Shown: positions 3,465 to 45,122, counted from the first letter of the stretch. The stretch is DNA of 56,175 nt from an uncultured Bacilli bacterium (GCA_944358405.1 CALVQX010000029.1:1-56175), one strand, 5' to 3'. Notes: generated by a model from the letters alone, not told the origin. Program-made: numbers and translations.

Positions 3465-3579
3465 AAATTATATACCTCCTTTTTATTATATCCAAATAAT
3501 AAATAAAACATGATTTTTTCTGTTTTTATTATTATGGTTTTATTATAGCTTATTTTTTTTTAAAGATATAGTTTTTTTA

Positions 3580-4905
3580 TTATTTTTTTCGAAGTTCTTT
3601 TTTTATTTTTTCGATTTCTATCAATCTGTTTTTGACATCTTTTTCTTTTCCTTGCATGGAAGGATTATAATATTTTTTGTTTTTTAATTTTTCTGGTAAG
3701 CATTGTAATCCAGTAATCTTATTTTCAAAGTCATGTGCGTATTGATAATTTTTACCATATCCCATTTGGCTATCTAGAGAAGTAACTGCATTTCTAAGAT
3801 CTAACGGTACTTTTTCGTCTAATGTTGCTAAGGCATCTTTTTTTACTTCTTCGTAAGCTTGATAAAGCGAATTTGATTTGGCCGAAACACTTAAATAAAC
3901 TACTGCTTGAGCCAAATTGACATTACATTCTGGCATACCTAAATAGTGAGCAGCTTGATAAGCAGCCGTTGCTTGTATTAAGGCGTTTGGGTTAGCAATT
4001 CCTATATCTTCTGATGCAAATCTAATTAATCTTCGTGCTATATAGAGAGGATTTTCACCAGCTTCTAACATTCTTGCTAGATAATATAAGGCAGCATCTG
4101 GATCACTATTTCGCATGGATTTATGTAAGGCTGAAATCAGATTATAATGCTCCTCACCATTTTTATCATATAAAAATACTTTTTGTGATAAAGCTTGTTC
4201 GATAGTTTCTTTTGTAATCTTTGTTTTCCCATTTACTTTCTTTGCAATGTTTGTAGAAATTTCTAGTGTATTGAGTGCACTTCTAGCATCGCCACAGGAA
4301 ATATCGGCAATCATTTCCAAGCAGTCTTCAGAAATTTCTACTTTATCCTTTTTTAATTTTTGGTCGTTTTGAATGGAGCGATTTAGTATTTTTATTATTG
4401 CTTCTTTTGATAGTGATTTTAAACAATATACTTTACATCTGGATAATAAAGCAGCATTTACTTCAAATGATGGATTTTCTGTTGTTGCTCCGATCAATAT
4501 GATATCTCCTTTTTCTACATAAGGAAGAAATGCATCTTGTTGAGCTTTGTTAAAACGGTGAATTTCATCTACAAAAAGAATAGTTTTCCCACCTTCTAAT
4601 TTATTACACTTTGCAATTTCTACGATCTCCTTTATTTCTTTTACACCTGAAGCAACGGCACTGAGTTGTCTAAAGTCAGCCTTGGTTGTTTTAGCAATAA
4701 TTTTAGCTAATGTTGTCTTTCCGACTCCTGGCGGTCCCCATAGTATCATCGATGGAATACTATCTTTTTCGATCATTTGTCTCAGCGAAGAATCTTTTCC
4801 AATGATTTCTTCTTGACCAATAAAATCTTCTAAAACTTCTGGTCTCATTCTTTCTGCCAAAGGTTCTTGATCTTTTGCTTCATAAAAATCAAAAATTGTA
4901 TTCAT
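3580..4905 (-). CDS. rarA: replication-associated recombination protein A (AAA+ ATPase RarA/MgsA)
   Basis: 441 aa; Walker A GPPGVGKTT, Walker B ILFVDEIHRFNK, MgsA C-terminal region (HYNLISALHKSMRNSDPDAALYYLARML). Confidence 0.92.
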   Translation of the reverse strand: MNTIFDFYEAKDQEPLAERMRPEVLEDFIGQEEIIGKDSSLRQMIEKDSIPSMILWGPPGVGKTTLAKIIAKTTKADFRQLSAVASGVKEIKEIVEIAKCNKLEGGKTILFVDEIHRFNKAQQDAFLPYVEKGDIILIGATTENPSFEVNAALLSRCKVYCLKSLSKEAIIKILNRSIQNDQKLKKDKVEISEDCLEMIADISCGDARSALNTLEISTNIAKKVNGKTKITKETIEQALSQKVFLYDKNGEEHYNLISALHKSMRNSDPDAALYYLARMLEAGENPLYIARRLIRFASEDIGIANPNALIQATAAYQAAHYLGMPECNVNLAQAVVYLSVSAKSNSLYQAYEEVKKDALATLDEKVPLDLRNAVTSLDSQMGYGKNYQYAHDFENKITGLQCLPEKLKNKKYYNPSMQGKEKDVKNRLIEIEKIKKELRKK

Positions 4906-5062
4906 ACTTCACCTACTATCTATTCAAATGCCTGATTATATATTATAACAAAAACATATGTTCGTCAATATTTTGATAAAAAATAAATTCATATATTTTC
5001 AGCAGATCATTTCTAATTCTATTTTTCAGGTAAATGAAATAAAAGATAGATTATTCTACCTT

Positions 5063-5578: not shown

Positions 5579-7212
5579 GCTTCTTCCTCCACTGTTTCAT
5601 TAATATCATCATACCAGCAAGAATACTGAATGATTGTTCCTTTGGTTGTTTCCATAGATTCTTTACTACATACACAATCTTCTTCTAGACAAGTAATGGT
5701 ATCCGTTACTGCGTTATATTCTCCATTACACTCATCATCATAAATGCGAATTTTAGATGATAATTCCGTAATCTGATAGCCATTCTCTATCTTTTTTTGA
5801 TCATATAAATATACTTTGGAAAGATTAGACATTAATTTGTTAATGGTTTCTTGAGATGCTTTGATTGTCATTGTATCAGCATATAGAAAGTTATAGTCTC
5901 TAAGAATATTATTTTTAAGATCTTTTGTTATCATTTGATAGATATCTTTAATATTTGATTTTGATTGGTAATAAAAATTATAATTTACCATTCCATATTC
6001 ATCTGAAATTACGTGCCCTATTTTAGTAAATCTAGGGTCATAGTCTATATTTATTATAATGTCATTTTCAGCAATCGAATTGTCTATAATATAATTATAT
6101 TCATGAATATAGTGATTGGTAAAGAACATGTTCTCTTCATATAATAGATGGTTTTCAAATGTTTTTGATTGTATAATATCTGATACATCTTCTTTTATTT
6201 CTATATCTTTTAACCCAATTAAACTAACTCCTATTCCTATTCCACATAAAAAAATTGATGCAAAAAATAAGATAATAAAGATTTTTATGGGGACTTTTTT
6301 GTTTATGACAAAATATATAATTGCTAGTAATATTAATACATTAAGTATGATTGCTCCTATCATGCTTATATCTACTCCAATAAAAATTAAAGAGTATTTA
6401 CTTAAAAATAGAGAAATTACAATTACTATTACGGACAATCCTAAAGTCAAAGTAAATCCCATAGCCATAAAAATCATAAATGCTTTTACAAACCAAATGA
6501 TAATTTTAGATAGTACAGATAAGAAAGCAAATGGCTGATGGCTAGGATCTCTTATAATAATGTTAGGTTCTTTTTTTAATTTTAACCCTTCTTTTTTCTT
6601 TTTACTTTCTTGTGTTTTTTTGTCTATTTCTTCTTCCTTATTTTCTTCTTTTTGTGTTAATTGATCATAATAATCTAAGTATCTAATTTTAAAAATATGA
6701 ACTGCTATAATCACGGTTAGAATAAACCACAATAGCTCGAAAATGCTATTTGTAATCCCTGTAAAAATTTGATGGGCAGAACGGGGTAAAAAAGATACCA
6801 AACTACTTACAATATAACTTAAAATATTTGTTATGATAATTCCACTTACTGCAATTATCAGAATAATCAAAGCCATTTCTATTAAGCACCTTAATCCACT
6901 ACTAAATTTCATACTTGAAAATAAGTTAATGGTTTTACTAATGAATTCTAGCAAAGAATCCCAAACTATATTCCAATTGTTTTTACTTTTTCTTTCTATT
7001 GATGTTAGATCAGTTATATTATCATTAATTAAATCATCCATACTACAATCGAATATATTACAAATTTGAATTATTTTATCTGTTTCTGGATAAGTATTGT
7101 TACTTTCCCACTTGGAAACAGATTGCCTAGATACATTTAACTTTGCTGCTAACTCTTCTTGAGAAAGTCCATGCTTTTTGTTTTTTTTTTTCAACTTGTC
7201 ACCAAATTTCAT
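5575..7212 (-). CDS. membrane-tethered XRE-family HTH transcriptional regulator with large C-terminal domain
   Basis: 545 aa; N-terminal HTH LSQEELAAKLNVSRQSVSKWESNNTYP, several TM segments, extracytoplasmic Cys-containing C-terminal region. Confidence 0.7.
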   Translation of the reverse strand: MKFGDKLKKKNKKHGLSQEELAAKLNVSRQSVSKWESNNTYPETDKIIQICNIFDCSMDDLINDNITDLTSIERKSKNNWNIVWDSLLEFISKTINLFSSMKFSSGLRCLIEMALIILIIAVSGIIITNILSYIVSSLVSFLPRSAHQIFTGITNSIFELLWFILTVIIAVHIFKIRYLDYYDQLTQKEENKEEEIDKKTQESKKKKEGLKLKKEPNIIIRDPSHQPFAFLSVLSKIIIWFVKAFMIFMAMGFTLTLGLSVIVIVISLFLSKYSLIFIGVDISMIGAIILNVLILLAIIYFVINKKVPIKIFIILFFASIFLCGIGIGVSLIGLKDIEIKEDVSDIIQSKTFENHLLYEENMFFTNHYIHEYNYIIDNSIAENDIIINIDYDPRFTKIGHVISDEYGMVNYNFYYQSKSNIKDIYQMITKDLKNNILRDYNFLYADTMTIKASQETINKLMSNLSKVYLYDQKKIENGYQITELSSKIRIYDDECNGEYNAVTDTITCLEEDCVCSKESMETTKGTIIQYSCWYDDINETVEEEA

Positions 7213-9059: not shown

Positions 9060-9079
9060 CTATGGAAGGAGGAAATCAA

Positions 9080-9781
<702 letters not shown>

Positions 9782-18584: not shown

Positions 18585-19787
18585 TCAGTTATGGACTAGT
18601 ACCGATACGCACTCTACATGATAGGTTCTAGGAAACATATTAAAAGGGGTAACGATCTTTGTTTGATACGTTTCTTTTAGCTCTTTTAGATCTCTAGCTA
18701 AGGTTACAGGATCACAAGAGATATAAATTAAATATTTAGGGGCAATCCGGATGATATGGCGTAATGTTTTTTTATCTAATCCTTTTCTTGGAGGATCGAC
18801 AATGATTAAGTCTGTATCTTGTTGAAACTGATCTATTACATTTTCTACTTTATTATTAATAAATTGAATATTTTTTACTTGATTTAATTTCTTATTATGA
18901 TTGGCATTTTTTATTGAGGAACTACAACTATCTATGCCAATTACTTCTTCTGCTTCACTACTAATATAAATACCAATGGTACCAGTTCCACAGTATAGAT
19001 CAAGCACTTTTTTTGGCTTAACTTTTTTTACTTCGTTCAATACCTCTTCATATAACATCTCTGTTAATTCTTGATTTACTTGAAAGAAAGATTCTATCGA
19101 TAAATAATATTGGTATTTACCAATGGTAGAGATGATTTCCTCTTTTCCTTGGAGTTGTTCTTCTTGAAAGAAAATTCCCGTTATGTCTTTCATATCAATA
19201 AGTGATTTGGGTTTGTCTCCAGATATTTTTATCAGACTTTCTTTTTCATCATTGGAGGTACGAATCATAATTTCTTGAACTTTGTTTTCTCTTGCTAATC
19301 TTTTCATTTTCGGTAACAATTCATTTATTTTTTGATTTAATAAAAGGCAAGTATCAATTGGGACTAGATTTTTGCTTTTTGGCTGATAATATCCTACTCT
19401 ATTCTTAGCTCCATGTAATGTTACTTTATTACGATAATGATAGGGACTTAAGTATTTTATTTCTTTTACTTCTACCTTCTCTATTTGAGAAAATTTTGCC
19501 AATAACTCTTTGACTTTTTCTCTTTTCCATTCGTTTTCTTTTTTATACTCTAAATGTTCTAAATCACACCCACCACAGATTTTGGCATAAGGACACACCT
19601 CTGGAATGCGATATGAAGAAATTGTAACCCATTCTTCTATTTCTGCTTCTATGTATTTTTTAGTTTCCTTTGTGACTTTAATTTTTACAATTTCATTTGG
19701 TAGTGCTTTGGCAACGAAACAAATCTTTTGATTTACATAAGTAATTCCTCTACCGAAATGATCTAATTTTTCGATTTTTACTTGCAT
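18585..19787 (-). CDS. 23S rRNA (uracil-C5)-methyltransferase, RlmD/RlmCD (RumA/TrmA) family
   Basis: 400 aa; N-terminal TRAM-like region, Fe-S cysteines (CPYAKICGGCDLEH), SAM motif LDLYCGTGTIG, IVDPPRKG. Confidence 0.85.
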   Translation of the reverse strand: MQVKIEKLDHFGRGITYVNQKICFVAKALPNEIVKIKVTKETKKYIEAEIEEWVTISSYRIPEVCPYAKICGGCDLEHLEYKKENEWKREKVKELLAKFSQIEKVEVKEIKYLSPYHYRNKVTLHGAKNRVGYYQPKSKNLVPIDTCLLLNQKINELLPKMKRLARENKVQEIMIRTSNDEKESLIKISGDKPKSLIDMKDITGIFFQEEQLQGKEEIISTIGKYQYYLSIESFFQVNQELTEMLYEEVLNEVKKVKPKKVLDLYCGTGTIGIYISSEAEEVIGIDSCSSSIKNANHNKKLNQVKNIQFINNKVENVIDQFQQDTDLIIVDPPRKGLDKKTLRHIIRIAPKYLIYISCDPVTLARDLKELKETYQTKIVTPFNMFPRTYHVECVSVLVHN

Positions 19788-19864: not shown

Positions 19865-21262
19865 ATGACGATTCAAGAAAAGATCACAAAGAAAATTGGA
19901 CCATCTAAGGATTATATACAAAAAAATATTGTCATTGATAAAGTGTCCGTTTATTTAGTATTTAATGAAACTTTGACCAATGGATTGGGAATTGATGATT
20001 TTATTCTAAAAAGTCTTCTTCAGTTGAGAAAAAAAGAGTTAAATAATCTTCCAAATGTTCTTCCTAATACGAATATTAAAGAAATAAAAGAAGAGGAAAT
20101 TTTAGACTATGTTAATCAAGGATTTTTAGTTATTGTAACAAACAAGATTTATGCTAGTGAATTTAGAGCAGTTCTAGATCGCGGAATTACAACAATTGAA
20201 AGCGAATTATCTATTACTGGACCAAAGGATAGTTTTTCCGAGAATTTTAATACAAACTTAGGCCTTATCAGAAGAAGAATTAAGTCTTGTGATCTTTATT
20301 GCGAGGATATGGAAATTGGACGTAGTAGCAAAACAAAAGTTGGTATTCTTTATATGAATCATATTGCACAAAAAGAACTACCTAAAAGAGTGAAGGAAGT
20401 ATTAAGTGAAATTGATATTGATGGGATTATTGACTCTAGTTATTTAAAAATTACTTTAGAAGAAAATAAAAGTTATTTTCCCACTGTCATGATGAGTGAG
20501 CGTCCTGATAAAAGTGCTATGGCTTTGTTGGAAGGAAAAGTAGTAATTCTTGTAGATATGAGCCCCTATGCTTTAATTTTACCAACTTTCTTTATTGATT
20601 TTTTTCATACTGTAGACGATTACTATCAAAAACCTTTCAATACCTCTTTTATTCGAATCATTCGTCTATTTGCTTTTATTATTGCTATTTTTACTCCGGC
20701 AATTTACATTGCAGTAACAACGAGAAATTATGATTTGGTTCCCTTAGATCTTCTTTTTGTATTAAAAGCCGGAAGAACCTTTGTGCCTTTCCCTGCTTAT
20801 ATCGAAGCACTATTTATGATTGTTTGTTTTGAGATCTTAAAGGAATCTGATTTACGAATGTCTTCTACTTCTGGCTCTGCAGTTTCTATTTTAGGTGGAT
20901 TAATTTTAGGAGATGCCGCAGTAAGCGCTGGTATTGTTTCTCCTATCATGATCATCGTCATTGCCATTTCTTCGATTGCTGGCCTTATTTTTACGTCTAT
21001 TGAATTAGTTAATGCCTTGCGGATCTATAAAATCGGATTGTTGCTTTTAGGAACATTTTTTGGTATCTATGGAGTGGTAGCTGGTGGAATTTATTTGTTC
21101 TATCGTCTATTTACTTTAAAATTATTTGGCATTCCTTATTTTTCCCCGTTTGTACCATTAGAAAAAAATGAGCTTCATGATTCTCTGATAAAAAAAGAAG
21201 AACCTATTAAGAAGAGAAATTCTATTCTTACAAAAAATATAACGAGAGGAAGATATCGATGA
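19865..21262 (+). CDS. GerA-family spore germination protein (A-subunit type)
   Basis: 465 aa; MMSERPDKSAMALLEGKVVILVDMSPYALILP core and C-terminal TM bundle typical of GerAA/SpoVAF-type proteins. Confidence 0.85.
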   Translation: MTIQEKITKKIGPSKDYIQKNIVIDKVSVYLVFNETLTNGLGIDDFILKSLLQLRKKELNNLPNVLPNTNIKEIKEEEILDYVNQGFLVIVTNKIYASEFRAVLDRGITTIESELSITGPKDSFSENFNTNLGLIRRRIKSCDLYCEDMEIGRSSKTKVGILYMNHIAQKELPKRVKEVLSEIDIDGIIDSSYLKITLEENKSYFPTVMMSERPDKSAMALLEGKVVILVDMSPYALILPTFFIDFFHTVDDYYQKPFNTSFIRIIRLFAFIIAIFTPAIYIAVTTRNYDLVPLDLLFVLKAGRTFVPFPAYIEALFMIVCFEILKESDLRMSSTSGSAVSILGGLILGDAAVSAGIVSPIMIIVIAISSIAGLIFTSIELVNALRIYKIGLLLLGTFFGIYGVVAGGIYLFYRLFTLKLFGIPYFSPFVPLEKNELHDSLIKKEEPIKKRNSILTKNITRGRYR

Positions 21263-21660
21263 AAAGAATAATCTTATTGATTGTATTTATTATAGGTGTT
21301 TTTCTACTTCCGATTCCTTCTTATGTTGAGTTAAATAATTTAGCAATTATCGAAGGAATTGGTGTAGAATATGAAAATGATGCATATTCCGTTTATCTAA
21401 AGGAGATTATTCCAATGCGACAAGAGCAAGGCATAGAATATGAATATCATTACTATGAAGGAACTTCTTCTTCTGTTTCGAAGGCTCTTTTAAAAATTCA
21501 GGAAAAAGAAAAAAAGAAACTATACCTCAAAAGAAGTAAGTTTCTTGTTACAAATGTTACAGATAGCTTTTCTGTTTTAAAAGAGTTAGATATATCCCTT
21601 TCTACCATCTATCATCCACAAACAGATGTTTTTAAAAAATTAAAAGAAACTAAGTCCTAG
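21259..21660 (+). CDS. small membrane-anchored protein resembling only the N-terminal part of Ger(x)C germination lipoproteins
   Basis: 133 aa; 4-nt start/stop overlap with the GerA gene; LNNLAIIEGIGVE resembles the GerxC N-terminal motif, but there is no lipobox Cys and the length is about one third of normal. Confidence 0.4.
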   Translation: MKRIILLIVFIIGVFLLPIPSYVELNNLAIIEGIGVEYENDAYSVYLKEIIPMRQEQGIEYEYHYYEGTSSSVSKALLKIQEKEKKKLYLKRSKFLVTNVTDSFSVLKELDISLSTIYHPQTDVFKKLKETKS

Positions 21661-38443: not shown

Positions 38444-38519
38444 GCCGACTTAGCTCAGTTGGTAGAGCAACTCATTCGTAATGAGTAGGTCGAAGGTTCA
38501 AGTCCTTTAGTCGGCACCA
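38444..38519 (+). tRNA. tRNA-Thr (anticodon CGT), CCA encoded
   Basis: manual cloverleaf: GCCGACT/AGTCGGC acceptor, GCTC/GAGC D stem, ACTCA-TTCGTAA-TGAGT anticodon arm, GAAGG-TTCAAGT-CCTTT T arm. Confidence 0.9.
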
Positions 38520-38556
38520 TGATGATAGAAAACTCAATTTTTTTGGGTCTAAATTT

Positions 38557-38586
38557 AAAACTACTCTCAAGATTGAAAGTAGTTTT
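38557..38586 (+). terminator. putative terminator after tRNA-Thr
   Basis: 9-bp stem AAAACTACT/AGTAGTTTT with 12-nt loop, then AATTT. Confidence 0.35.
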
Positions 38587-38766
38587 AATTTGGCATTTAA
38601 AAAACTTATAATATAAGTAGTAATACTCTGTGAAAAAAGAAAATTTATTTTTTCTTTTTATTGAATATAATTTTGATTAATTTTCTAATTTCTTTTTTGG
38701 ACTATTATCTTATAATCAATAAAATATTGGTTTTGTTTTATCAAAAATTTTTCTGTAATTTTCATT

Positions 38767-39411
38767 TTAATTCTTTATTTTTTGATTAGGTAGTAATTTT
38801 TTTACTTTTGATGTTTTTTCTTCTTCCGTTGATAGTAGTCTCAAAGATGTATCATTTTCGATTGATAGAACATTGTTAATATTACCTATTTTTTTGAAGT
38901 CTATTTTCCCATTCTTATCAACTGGTGCAGTTATTCCTAATAGCCCTATCTCCCCAGTAATTGTATTTAAAAACTCACTATCTTCATTATGGATGATTTG
39001 AATGAAATTTCCCATAGCATAACATTTGTGTTGGATAGAATCTAGTATTATTTTACCATCTGACTTTTGAAGTATTGTTCTCCATCTAGATTCACCATAA
39101 CCATAAGTCAACGAAAGATGGAAATGGATATAATCATAATCAACATCTCTTATACTACCATTTTCAGCATTTAATAATTGTTTATGCTCGTTTTCTCCAT
39201 CAAAGGTTCTAATAACAAACATACGCTCCTTATTACTATCAACACTTTCATAACTATTAGCAGATATTGTTATAATCGGTTCAAAATCAGCATGATAAAA
39301 ATGATAATCTGTTATTTCTGAACCAATACTATCTTGACCTATATATGTCAAGGGTGTCCAATATGGATAACCTTCAATAATATTATAATAAATATCAACT
39401 ATAATTCTCAT
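38767..39411 (-). CDS. hypothetical 214-aa protein, no recognisable family (islet gene 2)
   Basis: long ORF co-directional with and 150 nt downstream of the nuclease gene; no TM or signal; no SD in front of ATG 39411, so the start and expression are uncertain. Confidence 0.45.
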   Translation of the reverse strand: MRIIVDIYYNIIEGYPYWTPLTYIGQDSIGSEITDYHFYHADFEPIITISANSYESVDSNKERMFVIRTFDGENEHKQLLNAENGSIRDVDYDYIHFHLSLTYGYGESRWRTILQKSDGKIILDSIQHKCYAMGNFIQIIHNEDSEFLNTITGEIGLLGITAPVDKNGKIDFKKIGNINNVLSIENDTSLRLLSTEEEKTSKVKKLLPNQKIKN

Positions 39412-39561
39412 TTAATAAGTGCAGAAGAAATGAAACAAATTGAGTTAAAATTAAATATATAAATATTGTTACTTTCATTGATTAGGTCATTAGATAGATT
39501 GATACTCAAGCTTTTTAATTTATAAAATTGTTTGAGTTTTAATATACCTAAAGGTGAAATA

Positions 39562-40317
39562 CTAATTTTCATAAGAATATATTTTGTCAAAAAGCTTTTC
39601 AACACTATCTTTTCTTATAGAAAACTGGATGTTTTTATTTCTATTTTTACCAAGATTCTCCTCACTTCTTTCAAATCTTAATAGTAATGTAGCTTTTACT
39701 TCTCCCCGTTCCAAGCATTTTATAAAAGCTAGTATATTTTTTATAGTATAACATTCTAGCTTATAATATCGAAAAAAATAACTATTGTTCATTTTTCGTT
39801 TACTTGCATAGAATAAAGCAAGTTTATTTAATTTAATTAATAGTCTTTGTTCTAGAGAATCAAAAAATATAAATGCACTATCCTCTATAAAATTCATATT
39901 TTCATCATATATTCTTATAAATATCTTTTTATTATCATAGTCTATTTTTAATTCAAAATAATACTTATCAGATACTAAAACTTTTTGATTTGTTTTTAAG
40001 TTCACAACAAGTTTATTATAGTTTTCAAATATAGTATCGCATTTTCCATAGTTTTCTAAAAGATAATTACTTTCGAATATCCTAGGTCCATCAAATGATA
40101 AAGAAAATAGACTTATATTATATCTGCTAAATCTTTGGGTGCATTTTATTTCAATTCCCTCATAATCTGGAAAAAATAAACTATCTGGTTTCTTATCAAA
40201 ATAGTTTTCTAAAGTAAGACCTGCAGAATTATACAAGTTATTATTGATGCCCTGAATATAGCCTAAATTATTTAGTTTCTTAAATTTATCTATGATATTT
40301 TTAAAGTCTTTTTCCAT
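39562..40317 (-). CDS. MvaI/BcnI-family (MutH-like) PD-(D/E)XK restriction-type endonuclease, no adjacent methyltransferase
   Basis: 251 aa; FFPD51-YEGI-E56-I-K58 catalytic motif, SLFSLSFDGP, C-terminal FFDSLEQRL..KLNKLALFYA..YFFRYYKLE..GEVKATLLLR pattern matching my recollection of MvaI/BcnI; SD AGAGGTG. Confidence 0.6.
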   Translation of the reverse strand: MEKDFKNIIDKFKKLNNLGYIQGINNNLYNSAGLTLENYFDKKPDSLFFPDYEGIEIKCTQRFSRYNISLFSLSFDGPRIFESNYLLENYGKCDTIFENYNKLVVNLKTNQKVLVSDKYYFELKIDYDNKKIFIRIYDENMNFIEDSAFIFFDSLEQRLLIKLNKLALFYASKRKMNNSYFFRYYKLECYTIKNILAFIKCLERGEVKATLLLRFERSEENLGKNRNKNIQFSIRKDSVEKLFDKIYSYEN

Positions 40318-40345
40318 AATTCACCTCTTTTAGGTGCTTATACTA

Positions 40346-40452
40346 TCAGTTGGTTAGAGCAAAATTTGTCGACTTAGGTATTTTTTATATTATTATTCTT
40401 ATGTGAAAAATAAGGGCGGTCGATGGTTCAAAAAAAAAGACCATCAGGGTCC
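40346..40452 (+). pseudogene. degenerate, inverted copy of the neighbouring tRNA-CAT gene (tRNA fossil)
   Basis: 16/16 nt match to the D arm (TCAGTTGGTTAGAGCA, 40346-40361), 16/16 to the variable/T-stem (GGGCGGTCGATGGTTC, 40414-40429) and 12/12 to the T-stem/acceptor (CCATCAGGGTCC, 40441-40452); the anticodon arm is replaced by about 52 AT-rich nt and the T loop by an A9 run. Confidence 0.7.
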
Positions 40453-40466
40453 TTTAATTTTTTTAA

Positions 40467-40550
40467 TGGTGCGAGTAACAGGAGTTGAACCTGCACGTCT
40501 AAGACACTAGATCCTAAGTCTAGCGCGTCTGCCAATTCCGCCATACTCGC
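40467..40550 (-). tRNA. tRNA-Leu (anticodon TAG), long variable arm, CCA encoded
   Basis: manual fold: GCGAGTA/TACTCGC acceptor, CTAGA-CTTAGGA-TCTAG anticodon arm, 13-nt variable arm, GCAGG-TTCAACT-CCTGT T arm. Confidence 0.9.
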
Positions 40551-40558
40551 ATTTTAAA

Positions 40559-40635
40559 TGGTGGACCCTGATGGACTCGAACCATCGACCGCCCGGTTAT
40601 GAGCCGGATGCTCTAACCAACTGAGCTAAGGGTCC
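40559..40635 (-). tRNA. tRNA with CAT anticodon (Met by anticodon; loop CTCATAA and overall sequence look more like lysidine-type tRNA-Ile2 than initiator or elongator Met)
   Basis: manual fold: GGACCCT/AGGGTCC acceptor, GCTC-AGTTGGTTA-GAGC D arm, TCCGG-CTCATAA-CCGGG anticodon arm, GATGG-TTCGAGT-CCATC T arm; G1-C72 and no GGG/CCC anticodon stem, so not an initiator. Confidence 0.85.
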
Positions 40636-40646
40636 GCTGCTATTTA

Positions 40647-40675
40647 ATAATAGCACACATTTTTATTGCTTGCAA
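40647..40675 (-). promoter_or_regulatory. sigma-A promoter of the tRNA-CAT/tRNA-Leu pair
   Basis: TTGCAA - 17 nt - TATTAT with extended -10 TG (TGcTATTAT); -10 ends about 11 nt before the tRNA 5' end. Confidence 0.6.
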
Positions 40676-40694
40676 GAGAAAAATACATTTTTCT

Positions 40695-41114
40695 TTATTT
40701 TTGTAACATATTTAATAAATTAATTTTAAACATATCTTTTTCTGGATTGGTTTTAGAAATCATAACTCCTTTATATGTAGAAAGTTCAGCCCTATGTCCT
40801 TCATCTAAAATTCCTTCAGGTGTTATATTAGTTAATAAAATTATTCCTTTCTCTAAATAAACTGTATAATGTAGAATAATTTCCCCGTGTACCTTACGGA
40901 ATAATTCATCTGTTGGTAACTTTAATTCGTAATTAACTGTTTTATCTTTTTCATTTTTACTAACTTCTTGTCCTAAGAAATTACCTTTACGTAATTCTGG
41001 ATAATAATTGAATGTTAACTTTTTATATGCCAACATATTATACTTTCTTACTGATCTTTCTTTCTTTCTAAAATCATTTTCATCCAAATATTCAAATATA
41101 TAAGAATTCATCAT
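40695..41114 (-). CDS. hypothetical 139-aa cytoplasmic protein, no recognisable family
   Basis: ORF with a GGGGG SD region and its own consensus promoter; basic N-terminus, no TM segment. Confidence 0.55.
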   Translation of the reverse strand: MMNSYIFEYLDENDFRKKERSVRKYNMLAYKKLTFNYYPELRKGNFLGQEVSKNEKDKTVNYELKLPTDELFRKVHGEIILHYTVYLEKGIILLTNITPEGILDEGHRAELSTYKGVMISKTNPEKDMFKINLLNMLQK

Positions 41115-41311: not shown

Positions 41312-43582
41312 TTATTTGGTATATACATATCCAGCTTCTTCTGCAGTTGGATTGTTTGCCATTTCTTCTACAAGTGCATTTGCTAGTTCCTCATTTGAAA
41401 TCGTCTCTTCATATTCATAGATTACTTGATCCGTAGTATTTTCTGCTGGAGGGCTAGCCTGTTCTATTGATACTGTTGTATTCGTATCAGTTACATCTAC
41501 AAATGTATTATCCGTTGTTGGAGCACTTGTTTCTGGTGTATATGCTGGAGCTTGATTATCAAATTCTTGTCCCGTTTGATTTGGATCTGGTAAATTAGAT
41601 TCAGTCTTACTTCCAGTACCATCTGTTGTAATGTCTTGAACCGAATCATTTAAGTTGCCATTACTGTCAGAATAATTTTCATCAAAGTCTACATTGTGAT
41701 CTCCAAAATCATCTTCATTTACTGGAGTTGTTTCAGAAGTTGATGATTGATTATTTTTATCGATTTGCTCGTTTGCAGCATCAATTTTATCTTGTAGATC
41801 CTGATCACTTTGTGCTACTTGTTGTTCTAATTGTTCTTTCTTTTGGTCTTCTTGTTGTTGCAATTGCTCTGCTTTTTCAGAAGCTTCTTGCTCTGCTTTT
41901 TCCTTGGCAGCAGCATTTTCTTTTTCTATTTGTGCATCTACTTTTTTCTCTGCTTCTTCTACAGCTTTTTCTCCAACTAATTCTATAGCTTTATCACGAT
42001 CACTCGTTTTTATTTTTTCTGTTGTAGTTTGATAATCCGTATATGATTCACTGGTTATCGTAGTATAAGAATAGCTAGAAGTTGTTGAATATCCTCCTGA
42101 ACCGCTATTATAGTCTATAATGTTCATTGAATTTACCCATTTTTGGAATGCGTCTAGTTCGCTCAATTCACGATGAGCATCGTCAATTACATATTTCCCT
42201 CTTGCTTGTAGTTCAAGGATTTTAGCATTTTTAAACTCTTCATAGCTTGGATTGCTTACATCACGTTCTGTCATTGTACTAATTAGACTTGCCTTTTGAA
42301 TGTATTGATCAGCATAGTTACAGATACCTAAGTCATTGAAATATGCAATAGCTTTATCTGATAATGTATGATCAATTTCAAGATTTTGAAACATCATTTC
42401 TGCTGCAGCTACCATTGGGACAACTGAGTATTTATAAGGTAGAAGGGAATTTCTAGCATCTGCATGGGCAATTCCTTCTTCTCTAATTTCATCACTAATT
42501 GGGAAGTCATTAAATAATTCTTGATAAAAAGCATTTACTTTGTTAATTTGATCTTGTCCAGTTGCTTCTTTAGCCTGTAAAAACATCTCATGATACTTTT
42601 GATAGAACGCTTTTCCCTCTTCACTATTAATTAATTCATCCATTTTTACAGGATTATCACGTACTTCAATCACATGTGCTCCCATTAGTTGCAATACTCC
42701 TGTTTTATAGGCATTGCTTAAAGCAGTAGCATCTAACTCTGCCCCATTGAAAATTGATTGAATCTCTTCTTTAGAGTAATTGTTATATACAAGATCCAAT
42801 GCTACTACTTCATCCCATGACAAAGCAGCACGAATGTCTTTCCCTTCTTCTAAATAACCTGAGGCGAAGGTACCGTTAAAGTTATCTAAGACATTGCTAT
42901 ATTTTTGCATAGTTTCTTTTTGTAGTTCATTGGTAGTATCATTAAGTAATTGATCAAAGGTTGACTCACCGATGATTATTATATCCCCATTTGCATTCGC
43001 CAATGCTTCGTTAGTTACACTATTTTCCTTTTCTGCATCTGCTTTTTTATTATTCAAAGCAGCACAACCAGTTAAACCTAATGCAGCTGCTGTGATAAGA
43101 GCAGTTAATTTTCTTGCTCTAGTTTTTAAGGCCCTTTTGAAAAATTTAGCTACTCTAGTATTGGCAATCCACGAGGTAATGCGTCCTATGATCCCTACTT
43201 TTTTCTTTGCTGGCTTCGTTTTAGCTTTTGATTTTTTTGACAAATCGCTCTCTTCCACTGCTGGAGTAGGAGGATTACCTCCTATCAAATCGTCAGATGG
43301 ATTTGGAGTCGTTCCTGGCTTTTTCTTTCTTCCTAAATAGGTTTTGAAATTTTTTTCAAATTGTTCACCTGATATATTATAAATATAATTTTTATTGATA
43401 TATTCTTCAGGTGTTCCTGATAATTTCTTTTCTTGAATTAACTTTCTAGCAGCAATAAGTCCATCTTCTTTATCTACATTTTTTACACTACCATCGGCAT
43501 AGAAAATACATGCTTGCGTTCTTTTTCCTGTTTCACTATTAAATTCATAGAATACAACATTTTCAATTTTTTTATCATTCAT
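41312..43582 (-). CDS. large exported/anchored protein with internal lipobox-like signal, coiled-coil and acidic Thr/Asn-rich tail
   Basis: 756 aa; strong SD (AAGGGGGA); roughly 150-aa basic/Pro-rich N-terminal region, then KTRARKLTALITAAALGLTGC173, alpha-helical domain, EKAEQ.. coiled coil, low-complexity C-terminus; no LPXTG. Confidence 0.6.
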   Translation of the reverse strand: MNDKKIENVVFYEFNSETGKRTQACIFYADGSVKNVDKEDGLIAARKLIQEKKLSGTPEEYINKNYIYNISGEQFEKNFKTYLGRKKKPGTTPNPSDDLIGGNPPTPAVEESDLSKKSKAKTKPAKKKVGIIGRITSWIANTRVAKFFKRALKTRARKLTALITAAALGLTGCAALNNKKADAEKENSVTNEALANANGDIIIIGESTFDQLLNDTTNELQKETMQKYSNVLDNFNGTFASGYLEEGKDIRAALSWDEVVALDLVYNNYSKEEIQSIFNGAELDATALSNAYKTGVLQLMGAHVIEVRDNPVKMDELINSEEGKAFYQKYHEMFLQAKEATGQDQINKVNAFYQELFNDFPISDEIREEGIAHADARNSLLPYKYSVVPMVAAAEMMFQNLEIDHTLSDKAIAYFNDLGICNYADQYIQKASLISTMTERDVSNPSYEEFKNAKILELQARGKYVIDDAHRELSELDAFQKWVNSMNIIDYNSGSGGYSTTSSYSYTTITSESYTDYQTTTEKIKTSDRDKAIELVGEKAVEEAEKKVDAQIEKENAAAKEKAEQEASEKAEQLQQQEDQKKEQLEQQVAQSDQDLQDKIDAANEQIDKNNQSSTSETTPVNEDDFGDHNVDFDENYSDSNGNLNDSVQDITTDGTGSKTESNLPDPNQTGQEFDNQAPAYTPETSAPTTDNTFVDVTDTNTTVSIEQASPPAENTTDQVIYEYEETISNEELANALVEEMANNPTAEEAGYVYTK

Positions 43583-43595
43583 TTTATCTTCCCCC

Positions 43596-45122
43596 TTAAC
43601 TTGCTAATTTTTTATAGCCAGTATAGTACCATCCATTATTTAATAAGCTAGTATCATTATATTTACTCCATTTAGTTGTTGTTTTTCCAGCACTTAATAA
43701 GTTTCTTGTTTTAGTACTTTGATAACATACCGTACCATACAATGGTTCTTTTCTAGTTGCAATCTCTGAAACTTGTATTGTGCTATAAACTGGAATCGTC
43801 TTTGTAACTACTTCTCCACAACTAGCAGTGATGCTTGATGAGGTTGAACTAGAAGTAGAACTACTACTTGAAGATCCTCCAGGTGTAGAGGTAGTTGAGC
43901 TTACAGATGAAAGTCCTCCTGTATAACTGTATTCATCGTACCAATAATATGGCAAGGAAGTACATGTAGTACTACAGTAACTAAAGTCTGCACCTACAAA
44001 TATATATTGTGTACTTGCACTACTGCTTGGTGGATTTTGATATCTTTGACGTCCTTTGTAAGTCCATCCACCAGTACTACTCATCGTCGTTGAAGTCACT
44101 GTATTTATAGTTGTATAAGTTGTTGTGGTGGTGGTTGCATAAGTTGTATTATTAACAATTACATAGTTATATTTAGAACATGCCTTTTGAGTATAAGAAC
44201 CAGTCTGTACTAGTTTATTTCTTGTTGCAACATACTTTTTATCATAGGTACCAATTTGTTCTTTTTGATCATATCTTTGGACTTTCTTTAGACACGTTGT
44301 ATCTTGGTCAGAGCAATTAACTGTTGGAGTACTACAACTTGTTTCAGTCCAAGAAGACCAAGACGTCCAAGCTGAGAATTGCGCACCAGTAGTTTTTTGA
44401 TACTCATATATATATCCAGGTTCTTTGGTTGGTACGGGATCTGCAGTATCTGTTGGCGTTGGCTTATTATTATCATTATTGTTATTGTTATTGTTATCGT
44501 TATTATTATTGTTATTATTGTTATTATTGTTATTATTGTTATTATTATTGTTGTTATAGTTGTTGTTTGTATTGTTATTTGTAATAGATGTTACAGAGGT
44601 TGGTTGAGAAGCTTTGATAGCTACTTGTGTACTTTCTTTTTCACATACATAAGAATCACAATATGTATAGCATCCTAAATGAACTAAAATATAGTCTTCT
44701 TTTTCACTATCTTTTAAATTTACCTTTAATAAATATTCGTCATCCATTTTTGTGATTTTTACATAACTTGCCTCTACATCACAAGCTTTGTTATTTTTGT
44801 CTATTAAAGGGACAAGTAGTTTCTTGCCAATCATATCACTTAAGGTCATTGTGTCAGATTCTCCAACTTCTTGTGGTAATCTTTCATCAGTGTAATATGA
44901 AATGGCGGCATCTTTCATCTTCTCCAAATTATCTGCAAATATTTGTGATGTTAATGGTGATAGATCAACCGTCTGCCCTTCTGTTGTTTGAGTTACTACT
45001 TTTGGCTCAATAAATTTTGGTAATAACCATACTAATAAGAACACAAATATAATAATTAAAATTAATTTTAGCAAAAAGTCTCGAAACGGAAACCCCTTGT
45101 GTTCATACTCTTCTGTGTACAT
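43596..45122 (-). CDS. N-terminally anchored surface protein with poly-Asn linker and Cys/Ser/Thr-rich C-terminal region
   Basis: 508 aa; SD AGGGGGG; TM FLLKLILIIIFVFLLVWLL; Asn/Asp-only tract of about 30 residues; WTSWSSWTETSC motif; Ser/Thr runs. Confidence 0.6.
   Translation of the reverse strand: MYTEEYEHKGFPFRDFLLKLILIIIFVFLLVWLLPKFIEPKVVTQTTEGQTVDLSPLTSQIFADNLEKMKDAAISYYTDERLPQEVGESDTMTLSDMIGKKLLVPLIDKNNKACDVEASYVKITKMDDEYLLKVNLKDSEKEDYILVHLGCYTYCDSYVCEKESTQVAIKASQPTSVTSITNNNTNNNYNNNNNNNNNNNNNNNNNNNDNNNNNNNDNNKPTPTDTADPVPTKEPGYIYEYQKTTGAQFSAWTSWSSWTETSCSTPTVNCSDQDTTCLKKVQRYDQKEQIGTYDKKYVATRNKLVQTGSYTQKACSKYNYVIVNNTTYATTTTTTYTTINTVTSTTMSSTGGWTYKGRQRYQNPPSSSASTQYIFVGADFSYCSTTCTSLPYYWYDEYSYTGGLSSVSSTTSTPGGSSSSSSTSSSTSSSITASCGEVVTKTIPVYSTIQVSEIATRKEPLYGTVCYQSTKTRNLLSAGKTTTKWSKYNDTSLLNNGWYYTGYKKLAS
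44464..44580 (-). repeat. AAT/AAC trinucleotide microsatellite encoding poly-Asn, including 4 perfect tandem copies of a 9-bp unit (44511-44546)
   Basis: plus strand reads (GTTATTATT)x4 within a longer ATT/GTT run. Confidence 0.9.

Follow-up and report, generated by a model that had tools for sequence, protein, structure and literature searches.

A 56,175-nucleotide stretch of DNA from an uncultured Bacilli bacterium (GCA_944358405.1 CALVQX010000029.1:1-56175), referred to here as the window, carries a small islet (positions 38520 to 40452) whose central feature is the gene for a solitary restriction-type nuclease. On the plus strand, tRNA-Thr(CGT) (38444-38519) forms the far boundary of what turns out to be a variable segment. 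On the minus strand lie tRNA-Leu(TAG) (40467-40550) and, upstream of it, tRNA-Met(CAT) (40559-40635); all three tRNA genes are called by both ARAGORN and Rfam. Between tRNA-Thr and tRNA-Leu are two co-directional open reading frames (ORFs), both on the minus strand: a 251-aa ORF (39562-40317) encoding an endonuclease of the MvaI/BcnI family, with the PD-(D/E)XK type of active site, and a 214-aa ORF (38767-39411). A preliminary description of the islet had listed these tRNAs and ORFs at coordinates that ARAGORN, Rfam, and an ORF check bear out, and its headline was an undescribed two-gene system, bounded by two tRNAs, in which the 214-aa protein would be the partner of the nuclease. The headline proved wrong on both counts. 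The supposed partner is a truncated remnant lying outside the nuclease unit, and the unit that is conserved consists of tRNA-Met, tRNA-Leu, a degraded inverted copy of tRNA-Met (the relic), and the nuclease.

The family assignment of the nuclease is secure. It matches the Pfam family PF15515 (MvaI_BcnI) over the full profile (positions 1-227 of 227) with E=1.8e-24 and 87.5 bits, the cut-off being 25, it matches the PADLOC model REase_II for Type II restriction endonucleases, and a phmmer comparison with the solved structure of R.MvaI (2OA9) gives E=1.5e-19; the preliminary description had recognized the same family. At E<=1, the Pfam scan returned only MvaI_BcnI and a sub-threshold DUF2808, with no match to the MutH family and none to a known modification-reading domain. 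The active site of R.MvaI (PMC1874612) is made up of Glu36, Asp50, Glu55, and Lys57. Once a +3 offset between MvaI numbering and the 2OA9 PDB chain is allowed for, E37, D51, E56, and K58 of the nuclease align with these residues; the last three (nt 40167-40144) are the triad that had already been picked out, to which E37 is now added as the fourth catalytic residue. In an alignment of 125 relatives sharing 22-100% identity, E37, E56, and K58 are conserved in 100% and D51 in 99%, and many further positions are at least 90% conserved. Judged by these alignments, the nuclease is an intact, full-length member of the family with a complete Glu-Asp-Glu-Lys site. Its likeness to the monomeric Type IIP enzymes R.MvaI (CC/WGG) and R.BcnI (CC/SGG) takes in the full-length profile match, the same catalytic quartet within the motif T-F/L-E ... 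P-D-x4-E-x-K, a size of about 250 aa, and, by alignment, a two-lobe layout. More than 120 full-length relatives (about 250 aa, 38-72% identity) come mostly from metagenome-assembled genomes labelled Bacilli bacterium, and a genome scan adds others at 24-38% identity from uncultured Bacilli, 'Tenericutes', and Erysipelotrichaceae. The nuclease belongs to a subfamily of uncultured low-GC gut Bacilli.

What sequence might this enzyme recognize? The preliminary description had suggested CCWGG or CCSGG, and sites of both kinds are indeed found at the positions that it named (for example 9680, 10085, and 40592). The residues with which MvaI reads the major groove have been replaced, though: D207, R209, H223, D224, and H225 become T210, L212, R226, N227, and K228. 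Positions D207, R209, and H223 are not conserved, and the readout loop carries a family-specific N227-K228 (90%) in place of D224-H225. This comparison covered the readout residues of MvaI. In the window, CCWGG is observed 25 times against 30 expected and CCSGG 3 times against 8.6, and a Markov screen, of low power at 56 kb and 30% GC, found no palindrome of 4-6 bp that is absent or singularly depleted. The enzyme looks active, with a specificity that appears to be shared within the family and not to be readable as CCWGG or CCSGG, which leaves the suggested sites unsupported.

A consistent property of the subfamily is its solitude. No DNA methyltransferase was found in the 56-kb window by a Pfam sweep, itself incomplete, together with a motif screen of every ORF of at least 150 aa, nor was one found at about 25 distinct loci in the 5-10 kb around the nuclease, or in as much of that distance as the contig covered. 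Neighbourhoods annotated with Pfam over some 6-7 kb around the nuclease likewise held none. The motif screen, which looked for [DNS]PP[YFW], or for PCQ plus ENV, in open frames of at least 150 aa, found nothing in the window or at 116 chromosomal loci; as a positive control, it flagged the SPPY/FxGxG methyltransferase that adjoins three of three canonical plasmid-borne family members. Nor was a methyltransferase pseudogene seen nearby, although a screen of open frames of that length would miss a heavily fragmented one. The sole S-adenosylmethionine methyltransferase found in the window is a TRAM/tRNA(U5) enzyme (18585-19787) that acts on RNA, as had been stated beforehand, and the earlier description of the nuclease as an orphan is borne out, both in the window and for all chromosomal relatives that were examined. 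The subfamily never has a neighbouring DNA methyltransferase. The adjacent cognate methyltransferase of a Type II restriction-modification (R-M) system is missing locally, and, since the nuclease is solitary in every lineage, it probably does not depend on a linked one. In this it differs from canonical enzymes of its family such as R.MvaI and R.BcnI, three plasmid-borne members of which each adjoin an SPPY methyltransferase, and it differs from them too in occupying a fixed chromosomal slot beside tRNA genes and not a mobile R-M cassette.

Solitary Type II-like nucleases have long been puzzling, as an unprotected restriction enzyme should kill its host. The nuclease fits the known category of solitary restriction endonucleases surveyed by Ershova et al. 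in 2012 (PMC3488263), which includes, for example, a Bacteroides-wide HpaII-like group; those enzymes are likewise intact, spread across species, and without a linked methyltransferase, and they raise the same question of host survival. Here, by comparison, the solitary state spans a whole deep subfamily (22-100% identity), and the context of a tRNA pair with an inverted tRNA relic is undescribed in that survey. One way in which such a host might survive is that the R-M system is merely separated, the nuclease cutting unmodified DNA and an unlinked, possibly clade-wide, orphan methyltransferase protecting the chromosome. Separated systems are documented, with 57 predicted among 272 solitary restriction endonuclease genes (PMC3488263), and several features seen here agree with one: the catalytic residues are all in place, the window shows no avoidance of candidate sites, no palindrome is absent from it, and an orphan methyltransferase present throughout the clade would let the nuclease come and go freely. 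Against it stand the failure to find any methyltransferase within 5-10 kb, as far as the contigs reach, in the loci surveyed or in the window and the fact that canonical members keep theirs adjacent. Separated systems are also regarded as evolutionary dead ends (PMC3488263), and stable separation across lineages of 22-100% identity would for that reason be unusual. Separation is quite possible, if on balance unlikely.

Another consistent property is the setting. In 12 distinct lineages, whose nucleases share 38-100% identity, tRNA-Met(CAT), tRNA-Leu(TAG), and the nuclease follow one another on the same strand; these lineages are the window and the loci designated L005, L008, L011, L014, L030, L109, L111, L113, L115, L120, and L122. 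The nuclease unit directly follows tRNA-Leu in all 12 of them. Further out, almost every lineage has flanks of its own, among them PolA-Fpg, HisS-AspS, CysS-TruB, an RNase HII-family protein, and a sortase-anchored surface protein. The 137-327 nt that separate the nuclease start from the last upstream tRNA (tRNA-Leu, or tRNA-Thr in L109) are a degraded inverted copy of tRNA-Met. This relic is present in 12 of 12 occupied loci and in 0 of 29 related empty loci that have tRNA-Met and tRNA-Leu. No tRNA-derived repeat lies 3' of the nuclease, and conservation ends at the nuclease stop codon.

The relic in the window can be followed on the minus strand from tRNA-Leu toward the nuclease. Its first segment, GGACCCTGATGG (40452-40441), corresponds to the inverted acceptor and T-stem 3' strand of tRNA-Met and supplies the 5' arm of a terminator-like hairpin with a T-run (40435-40455), which a terminator scan placed directly after tRNA-Leu. 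The second segment, GAACCATCGACCGCCC (40414-40429), is the inverted variable loop and T-arm, perfect over 16 nt (repeat I13). An AT-rich insert of about 52 nt (40362-40413) stands, by alignment, in place of the relic's anticodon arm and is followed by the third segment, TGCTCTAACCAACTGA (40346-40361), the inverted D-arm, whose 16 nt are 100% complementary to 40609-40624 (repeat I12). These two perfect 16-nt inverted matches bear out the tRNA fossil that the preliminary description had reported at this end of the islet. Statistics support the resemblance: the relic's 15-nt pattern has 2 matches in the window where 0.03 are expected, and the local alignment of relic and tRNA-Met scores 45, compared with 13 +/- 2 (maximum, 24) for shuffles. 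An Rfam E-value scan of 40250-40700 recovered both genuine tRNAs and did not call the relic, which is therefore too degraded to be a tRNA gene. Next comes an extended -10-like element, TGATAGTAT (TGnTAnnAT; 40340-40348), the TG of which is taken from the CTG of the relic's D-arm segment. It is conserved in the window, L005, L008, L011, L014, L120, and L122 and is the putative promoter of the nuclease, for which a transcription start about 7 nt after 40340 would be predicted. A Shine-Dalgarno sequence (SD), AGAGGTG (40322-40328), conserved in the close clade, completes the series. Terminator, SD, and the conserved TGnTAnnAT together suggest that the nuclease has a transcription unit of its own. 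The relic would then serve as a terminator and, apparently, as part of a promoter, making it a tRNA pseudogene reused as regulatory DNA, and it offers a simple sequence signature by which such units could be found in metagenomes.

The relic is degraded, and it also keeps pace with the tRNA gene beside it. At a short diagnostic stretch, tRNA-Met and relic together read CCATC in the window, CCTAC in L005, L011, L109, L111, and L115, CCTAT in L008, L014, L030, and L113, and CCAAT, with GGCC, in L120. In L014, tRNA-Met and relic also share GATC in the variable loop, which L008 matches only in part. The one imperfect case is L122, with CCTAC in its tRNA-Met and CCTAT in its relic. This tracking of resident tRNA-Met variants indicates that the two copies evolve in concert, tRNA-Met acting as both the source and the ongoing template of the relic; either gene conversion between the inverted copies continues or complementarity itself is under selection. 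Could the relic be a working part and not a scar? In one version of this idea it would couple nuclease expression to the tRNA operon: 12 and 16 nt of it are complementary to the precursor of tRNA-Met in its 3' half, pairing there could compete with the terminator hairpin, and unprocessed tRNA precursor or read-through could switch the nuclease on. In the other, the unit would be a restriction-fold homing element that targets the neighbourhoods of tRNA genes. Taken together, these versions are speculative and distinctly unlikely, but either would mean that a solitary restriction-type nuclease is wired, or spreads, in a way not described before. The computed RNA fold of a read-through transcript (z = -9) was set aside as evidence, as it adds nothing to the inverted repeat itself and does not tell the hypotheses apart.

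The tRNAs of the unit invite two further remarks. The window's tRNA with anticodon CAT has a G1-C72 pair, and its D-arm and acceptor presumably resemble those of Escherichia coli ileX. It may be not tRNA-Met but a lysidine-bearing tRNA-Ile2, the decoder of AUA, in which case the pair would decode AUA and CUA. In L109, a tRNA-Thr(CGT) (5794-5869) sits on the same strand between tRNA-Leu and the relic and nuclease; in the window, tRNA-Thr(CGT) lies past the nuclease and the 214-aa remnant and is encoded by the other strand, which suggests that the window's lineage has undergone a local inversion or rearrangement.

How widespread is the unit among close relatives? The gene immediately upstream of the tRNA pair in the window, up139, encodes a core protein of 139 aa (40695-41114, minus strand) and served as bait for metagenome loci with an up139 83-93% identical to that of the window and at least 200 nt of sequence after tRNA-Leu (n=30). 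Of these, 29 have neither relic nor nuclease, and 1 (L030) is occupied. Many share the upstream synteny of the window, namely PfkB, a 508-aa gene, a 756-aa gene, up139, and the tRNAs. What follows tRNA-Leu in the empty sites is variously a glutaminyl cyclase, mTERF, a metallo-beta-lactamase-fold protein, a histidine phosphatase, or Tag; the slot is a synteny breakpoint and not an obvious defence island. The occupied locus is itself unusual. Its nuclease allele is only 38% identical to that of the window although its up139 is 91% identical, a combination that does not fit simple vertical descent; apart from L030, nuclease and flank identities roughly co-vary. In a sister strain (L001), a 5-bp AATTA duplication within an (ATTAA)n run (~700-730, corresponding to ~39815-39840 in the window) frameshifts the nuclease. 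The nuclease gene is thus accessory: few of the related genomes carry it, the sister strain has it with a shifted frame, and in one close relative a different allele has taken its place. It may be added that the two near-identical strains have each lost a different piece, L001 the frame of its nuclease and the window part of the 270-aa neighbour described below. Occupied, empty, and frameshifted alleles provide natural controls that can be compared directly.

The frameshift revives the thought, aired in the preliminary description, that the nuclease is a decaying leftover of an old R-M system, inactive, and tolerated because either its expression or its cutting has been lost. The adjacent gene is also a remnant, the nuclease ORF has the lowest GC content in the window, and solitary restriction endonucleases are often fragments or inactive (PMC3488263). 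Decay is hard to reconcile, however, with the retention of full length in more than 100 relatives, with catalytic residues 99-100% conserved and many others at least 90% conserved over the 125-sequence alignment, or with a strong SD and a conserved upstream element; no methyltransferase pseudogene was seen in open frames of at least 150 aa either. A dead nuclease is very unlikely.

Strict presence or absence raises another possibility, that of a selfish, free-standing endonuclease of the homing type. Relic and nuclease would spread together into empty tRNA-Met-tRNA-Leu loci by cutting and repair copying, and the relic could be a scar of break repair. Such an element would be expected at one fixed site beside highly conserved tRNA genes, as found in 12 of 12 lineages, with the unit intact while its outer flanks vary in nearly every lineage; incongruence between nuclease and neighbours, as in L030 with its shared upstream synteny, would also be in character. 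There is a precedent in SegB, a free-standing homing endonuclease in the tRNA cluster of phage T4 (PMC2330249), where again a nuclease gene lies beside tRNA genes and is polymorphic for presence between relatives. SegB, on the other hand, is a GIY-YIG enzyme in a phage, whereas the present nuclease is a chromosomal PD-(D/E)XK enzyme whose family architecture is that of short-site restriction and not of long-site recognition. The downstream flanks are not common to the lineages, so the two-sided homology that homing across species would use is missing. The distant clade described below has no relic, and no phage copy was found. Homing in this form is rather improbable.

The search for phage copies did turn up something else. 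The phage database contained no homolog of the nuclease, and two apparently viral hits in IMG/VR were rejected as phage copies, being host flank beside a prophage. In these loci (L123 and L124, ~3554-5000), a prophage with an ERF recombinase and a 420-aa tyrosine integrase has inserted into tRNA-Leu(TAG) at its 3' end; the 3' fragment of the tRNA that was displaced, ...CACTCGCACCA, abuts the integrase and is followed by terminator, relic, nuclease, and up139. This layout identifies tRNA-Leu(TAG) as a live phage attachment site and the nuclease unit as host flank. Is the unit itself an integrase-mobilized island? Presence/absence polymorphism between close relatives is there (1 of 30 occupied), but no integrase, among the window ORFs scanned, and no direct repeat of a tRNA 3' end at the far boundary were found. 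The tRNA-derived repeat that does exist is inverted, spans the whole length of the tRNA, and comes from tRNA-Met, not from the adjacent tRNA-Leu. Other signs of mobile-element traffic around the site come from one lineage, where a fragment of a group II intron-type reverse transcriptase (L111, 1-457) and a Cas12f1-like TNB (TnpB-type) fragment (L112, 3277-3627) lie within a few kilobases of the nuclease unit.

Base composition adds little to this history. The islet is AT-rich, as first described, with 24.7% GC compared with 30.3% for the window, and the nuclease ORF, at 23.3%, has the lowest GC of 49 window ORFs (mean, 30.4; standard deviation, 2.9). Low GC was nevertheless rejected as proof of horizontal origin and is only weak evidence of it, because up139, a core gene, is similarly AT-rich at 24.3%. 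Of the earlier picture of horizontally acquired cargo at a tRNA hotspot, it can be kept that the gene is accessory and sits at such a hotspot, where tRNA-Leu(TAG) is a phage attachment site in relatives.

More distant relatives (L018-L028, 24-38% identity) are also found beside tRNA genes, with a different geometry. In 7 of these 11 loci, a convergent tRNA-Pro(TGG) lies some 77-132 nt from the nuclease stop; in L028 the distance is 528 nt. This tRNA-Pro is functional and ends a tRNA operon, the next gene being tRNA-Ala or tRNA-Arg, and no relic was found beside it. tRNA adjacency is accordingly a family-wide trait, with the relic lacking in the distant clade. In L019 and L021, ORFs sized like L21 and L27 lie beyond the tRNAs, and PNPase- and S15-sized ORFs lie upstream of the nuclease; these comparisons are of size only. 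Family-wide adjacency to tRNAs, the tRNA-Pro clade included, and core-gene surroundings (PolA-Fpg, HisS-AspS, and, by size only, L21/L27 in the distant clade) might be taken to mean that the enzyme has been domesticated as a MutH-like nicking enzyme with a housekeeping role, for example strand discrimination in repair or processing at the tRNA locus, and that it works with an unlinked methyltransferase as MutH does with Dam. MutH is of the same fold superfamily, monomeric, and solitary, and it works with an unlinked methyltransferase (PMC1874612). Unlike MutH, the nuclease is patchily distributed, and it does not match the MutH Pfam family. Its absence from most close relatives and its frameshift in the sister strain make it dispensable, and a housekeeping role is less probable again than a dead gene.

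Of the readings considered, the one that fares best, at a little under an even chance, is that of a restriction-type defence nuclease which is independent of a methyltransferase and most probably directed by modification, in the manner of Type IV or Type IIM enzymes. The nuclease would be a monomeric, Mg2+-dependent enzyme with a single active site, cutting the two strands of a short site in turn, as MvaI and BcnI do. Its specificity would be conserved within the family and different from that of MvaI. It would be transcribed from its own promoter, downstream of the tRNA terminator (40455-40435), and would act without a linked methyltransferase. Its target would most probably be DNA carrying a foreign modification, with unmodified host DNA not a substrate. 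Direction by modification, one of the options listed in the preliminary description, is favoured because universal solitude is a hallmark of such enzymes and because MvaI itself can be directed by C5-methylation: it nicks C5-methylated BcnI sites (PMC3001055). As with Type IV and IIM enzymes in general, a single nuclease gene would here need no methyltransferase. The likeness goes only so far, since the Pfam scan detected no known modification-reading domain in the nuclease and its dependence on modification is an inferred one.

Five points weigh against this reading. (i) Modification dependence is deduced solely from the universal lack of a linked methyltransferase. (ii) The methyltransferase survey extended no further than the 56-kb window and, elsewhere, loci of at most about 20 kb. 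(iii) A two-hexamer promoter scan did not flag the extended -10 element assigned to the nuclease. (iv) The sister-strain frameshift and the patchy distribution would suit a gene on its way out equally well. (v) A plain defence role leaves the strict tie to the tRNA pair and to a concertedly evolving relic unexplained. The last of these is the most interesting feature of the locus, and no defence reading explains it. Why, then, does the subfamily matter? It is a deep and clean example of solitary nucleases, with an intact active site and never a linked methyltransferase, and no description of it, or of the architecture of tRNA pair, relic, and nuclease, was found in the literature. If the enzyme is indeed modification dependent, it would represent a new specificity class for the MvaI/BcnI fold and possibly a useful reagent.

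What of the 214-aa ORF? It has no SD, as first reported, and no match in Pfam, PADLOC, or NCBIfam. Only nine relatives were found among 5.8 billion clustered proteins. The near-identical sister strain (L001) encodes 270 aa; from the window copy, 168 bp flanked by direct repeats of ATGGTTATGGTG are missing, by all appearances a slippage deletion. Other relatives have 347-363 aa. Among 1.84 billion representatives searched with a profile, the usual length is 520-560 aa (about 550), and the window ORF aligns only with the C-terminal half of that form; no N-terminal part survives in the window. Ten full-length members of the family have no Pfam domain. For one of them (P0003), the AlphaFold model is poor (pLDDT 56) and all-beta, and its Foldseek matches are all beta-propellers at a TM score of about 0.2, a hint that the ~550-aa family may have a beta-rich repeat fold. 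On this comparison the 214-aa ORF is a dead gene, the 5'-truncated and internally deleted remnant of an unrelated ~550-aa protein.

These results bear directly on the two-gene module, in which the 214-aa protein would restrain or trigger the nuclease. In the window and the sister strain the two ORFs do lie side by side and point the same way, and that is where the association ends. Outside these two near-identical strains, the 214-aa family never adjoins the nuclease, being absent from that position in 11 of 11 other occupied lineages, so the module fails the co-occurrence test that the preliminary description had itself set for refuting it. In L002-L004 it occurs among unrelated genes, full-length relatives are found without a nuclease, and in L008-10 and L015 it lies 5 kb from the nuclease on the opposite strand; it is absent from the remaining nuclease loci examined. 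With one ORF truncated, internally deleted, and without an SD, such a module is extremely unlikely, and a false lead is removed. As an aside, P0007 and P0009 carry the C-terminal part of the family behind an ArsR-type HTH and a DUF1016 N-terminus, respectively, and P0006 has an N-terminus identical to the window ORF and then a different C-terminus. The contigs of these three are 865-1946 nt long and may be assembly chimeras or real recombination junctions.

The neighbour on the other side, up139, has no match in Pfam, NCBIfam, or PADLOC. It has its own consensus promoter (41202-41174, minus strand), a perfect TTGACA-17-TATAAT with a TG. An AlphaFold2 model is poor (pLDDT 59), with RelE/HigB-like matches that are weak and non-significant (E of 0.04-0.1). 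The gene almost always sits next to the tRNA pair, in most loci upstream of it; L109 and L111 have it downstream of the nuclease and convergent with it, and it is convergent also in L124. It was rejected as a dedicated partner of the nuclease: it has more than 4053 homolog clusters (at ~90% identity), most of them without the nuclease, as against 128 for the latter, and L113 and L120 have no copy of it in the 6-7 kb around the nuclease. up139 is a core gene of this clade and a frequent, but not obligatory, neighbour of the tRNA pair.

The rest of the window is unremarkable. The Pfam sweep took in most of the larger ORFs directly; for the 29.8-36.8 kb block it relied on the precomputed Pfam list of the sister contig. 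Neither this incomplete sweep nor the motif screen of ORFs of at least 150 aa revealed an integrase, in line with the preliminary description. The gene content by Pfam is that of an ordinary chromosome of a spore-forming member of the Bacillota, with GerA, PPDK, an RNase HII-family protein with DUF3378, and ABC transporters. Two large proteins without Pfam domains are encoded on the minus strand beyond up139, one of 756 aa (41312-43582), low in complexity and fast evolving, and one of 508 aa (43596-45122). On many related metagenome contigs they are syntenic with PfkB and up139, though their identities are only 27-50% and 25-79%, respectively. At 9062-9781 (plus strand), the window encodes a protein with collagen-repeat and C1q/BclA-C-like domains, of the exosporium type. 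Together with GerA/GerAC at 19865-21660, it points to a spore former, and SspI is found in related loci too.

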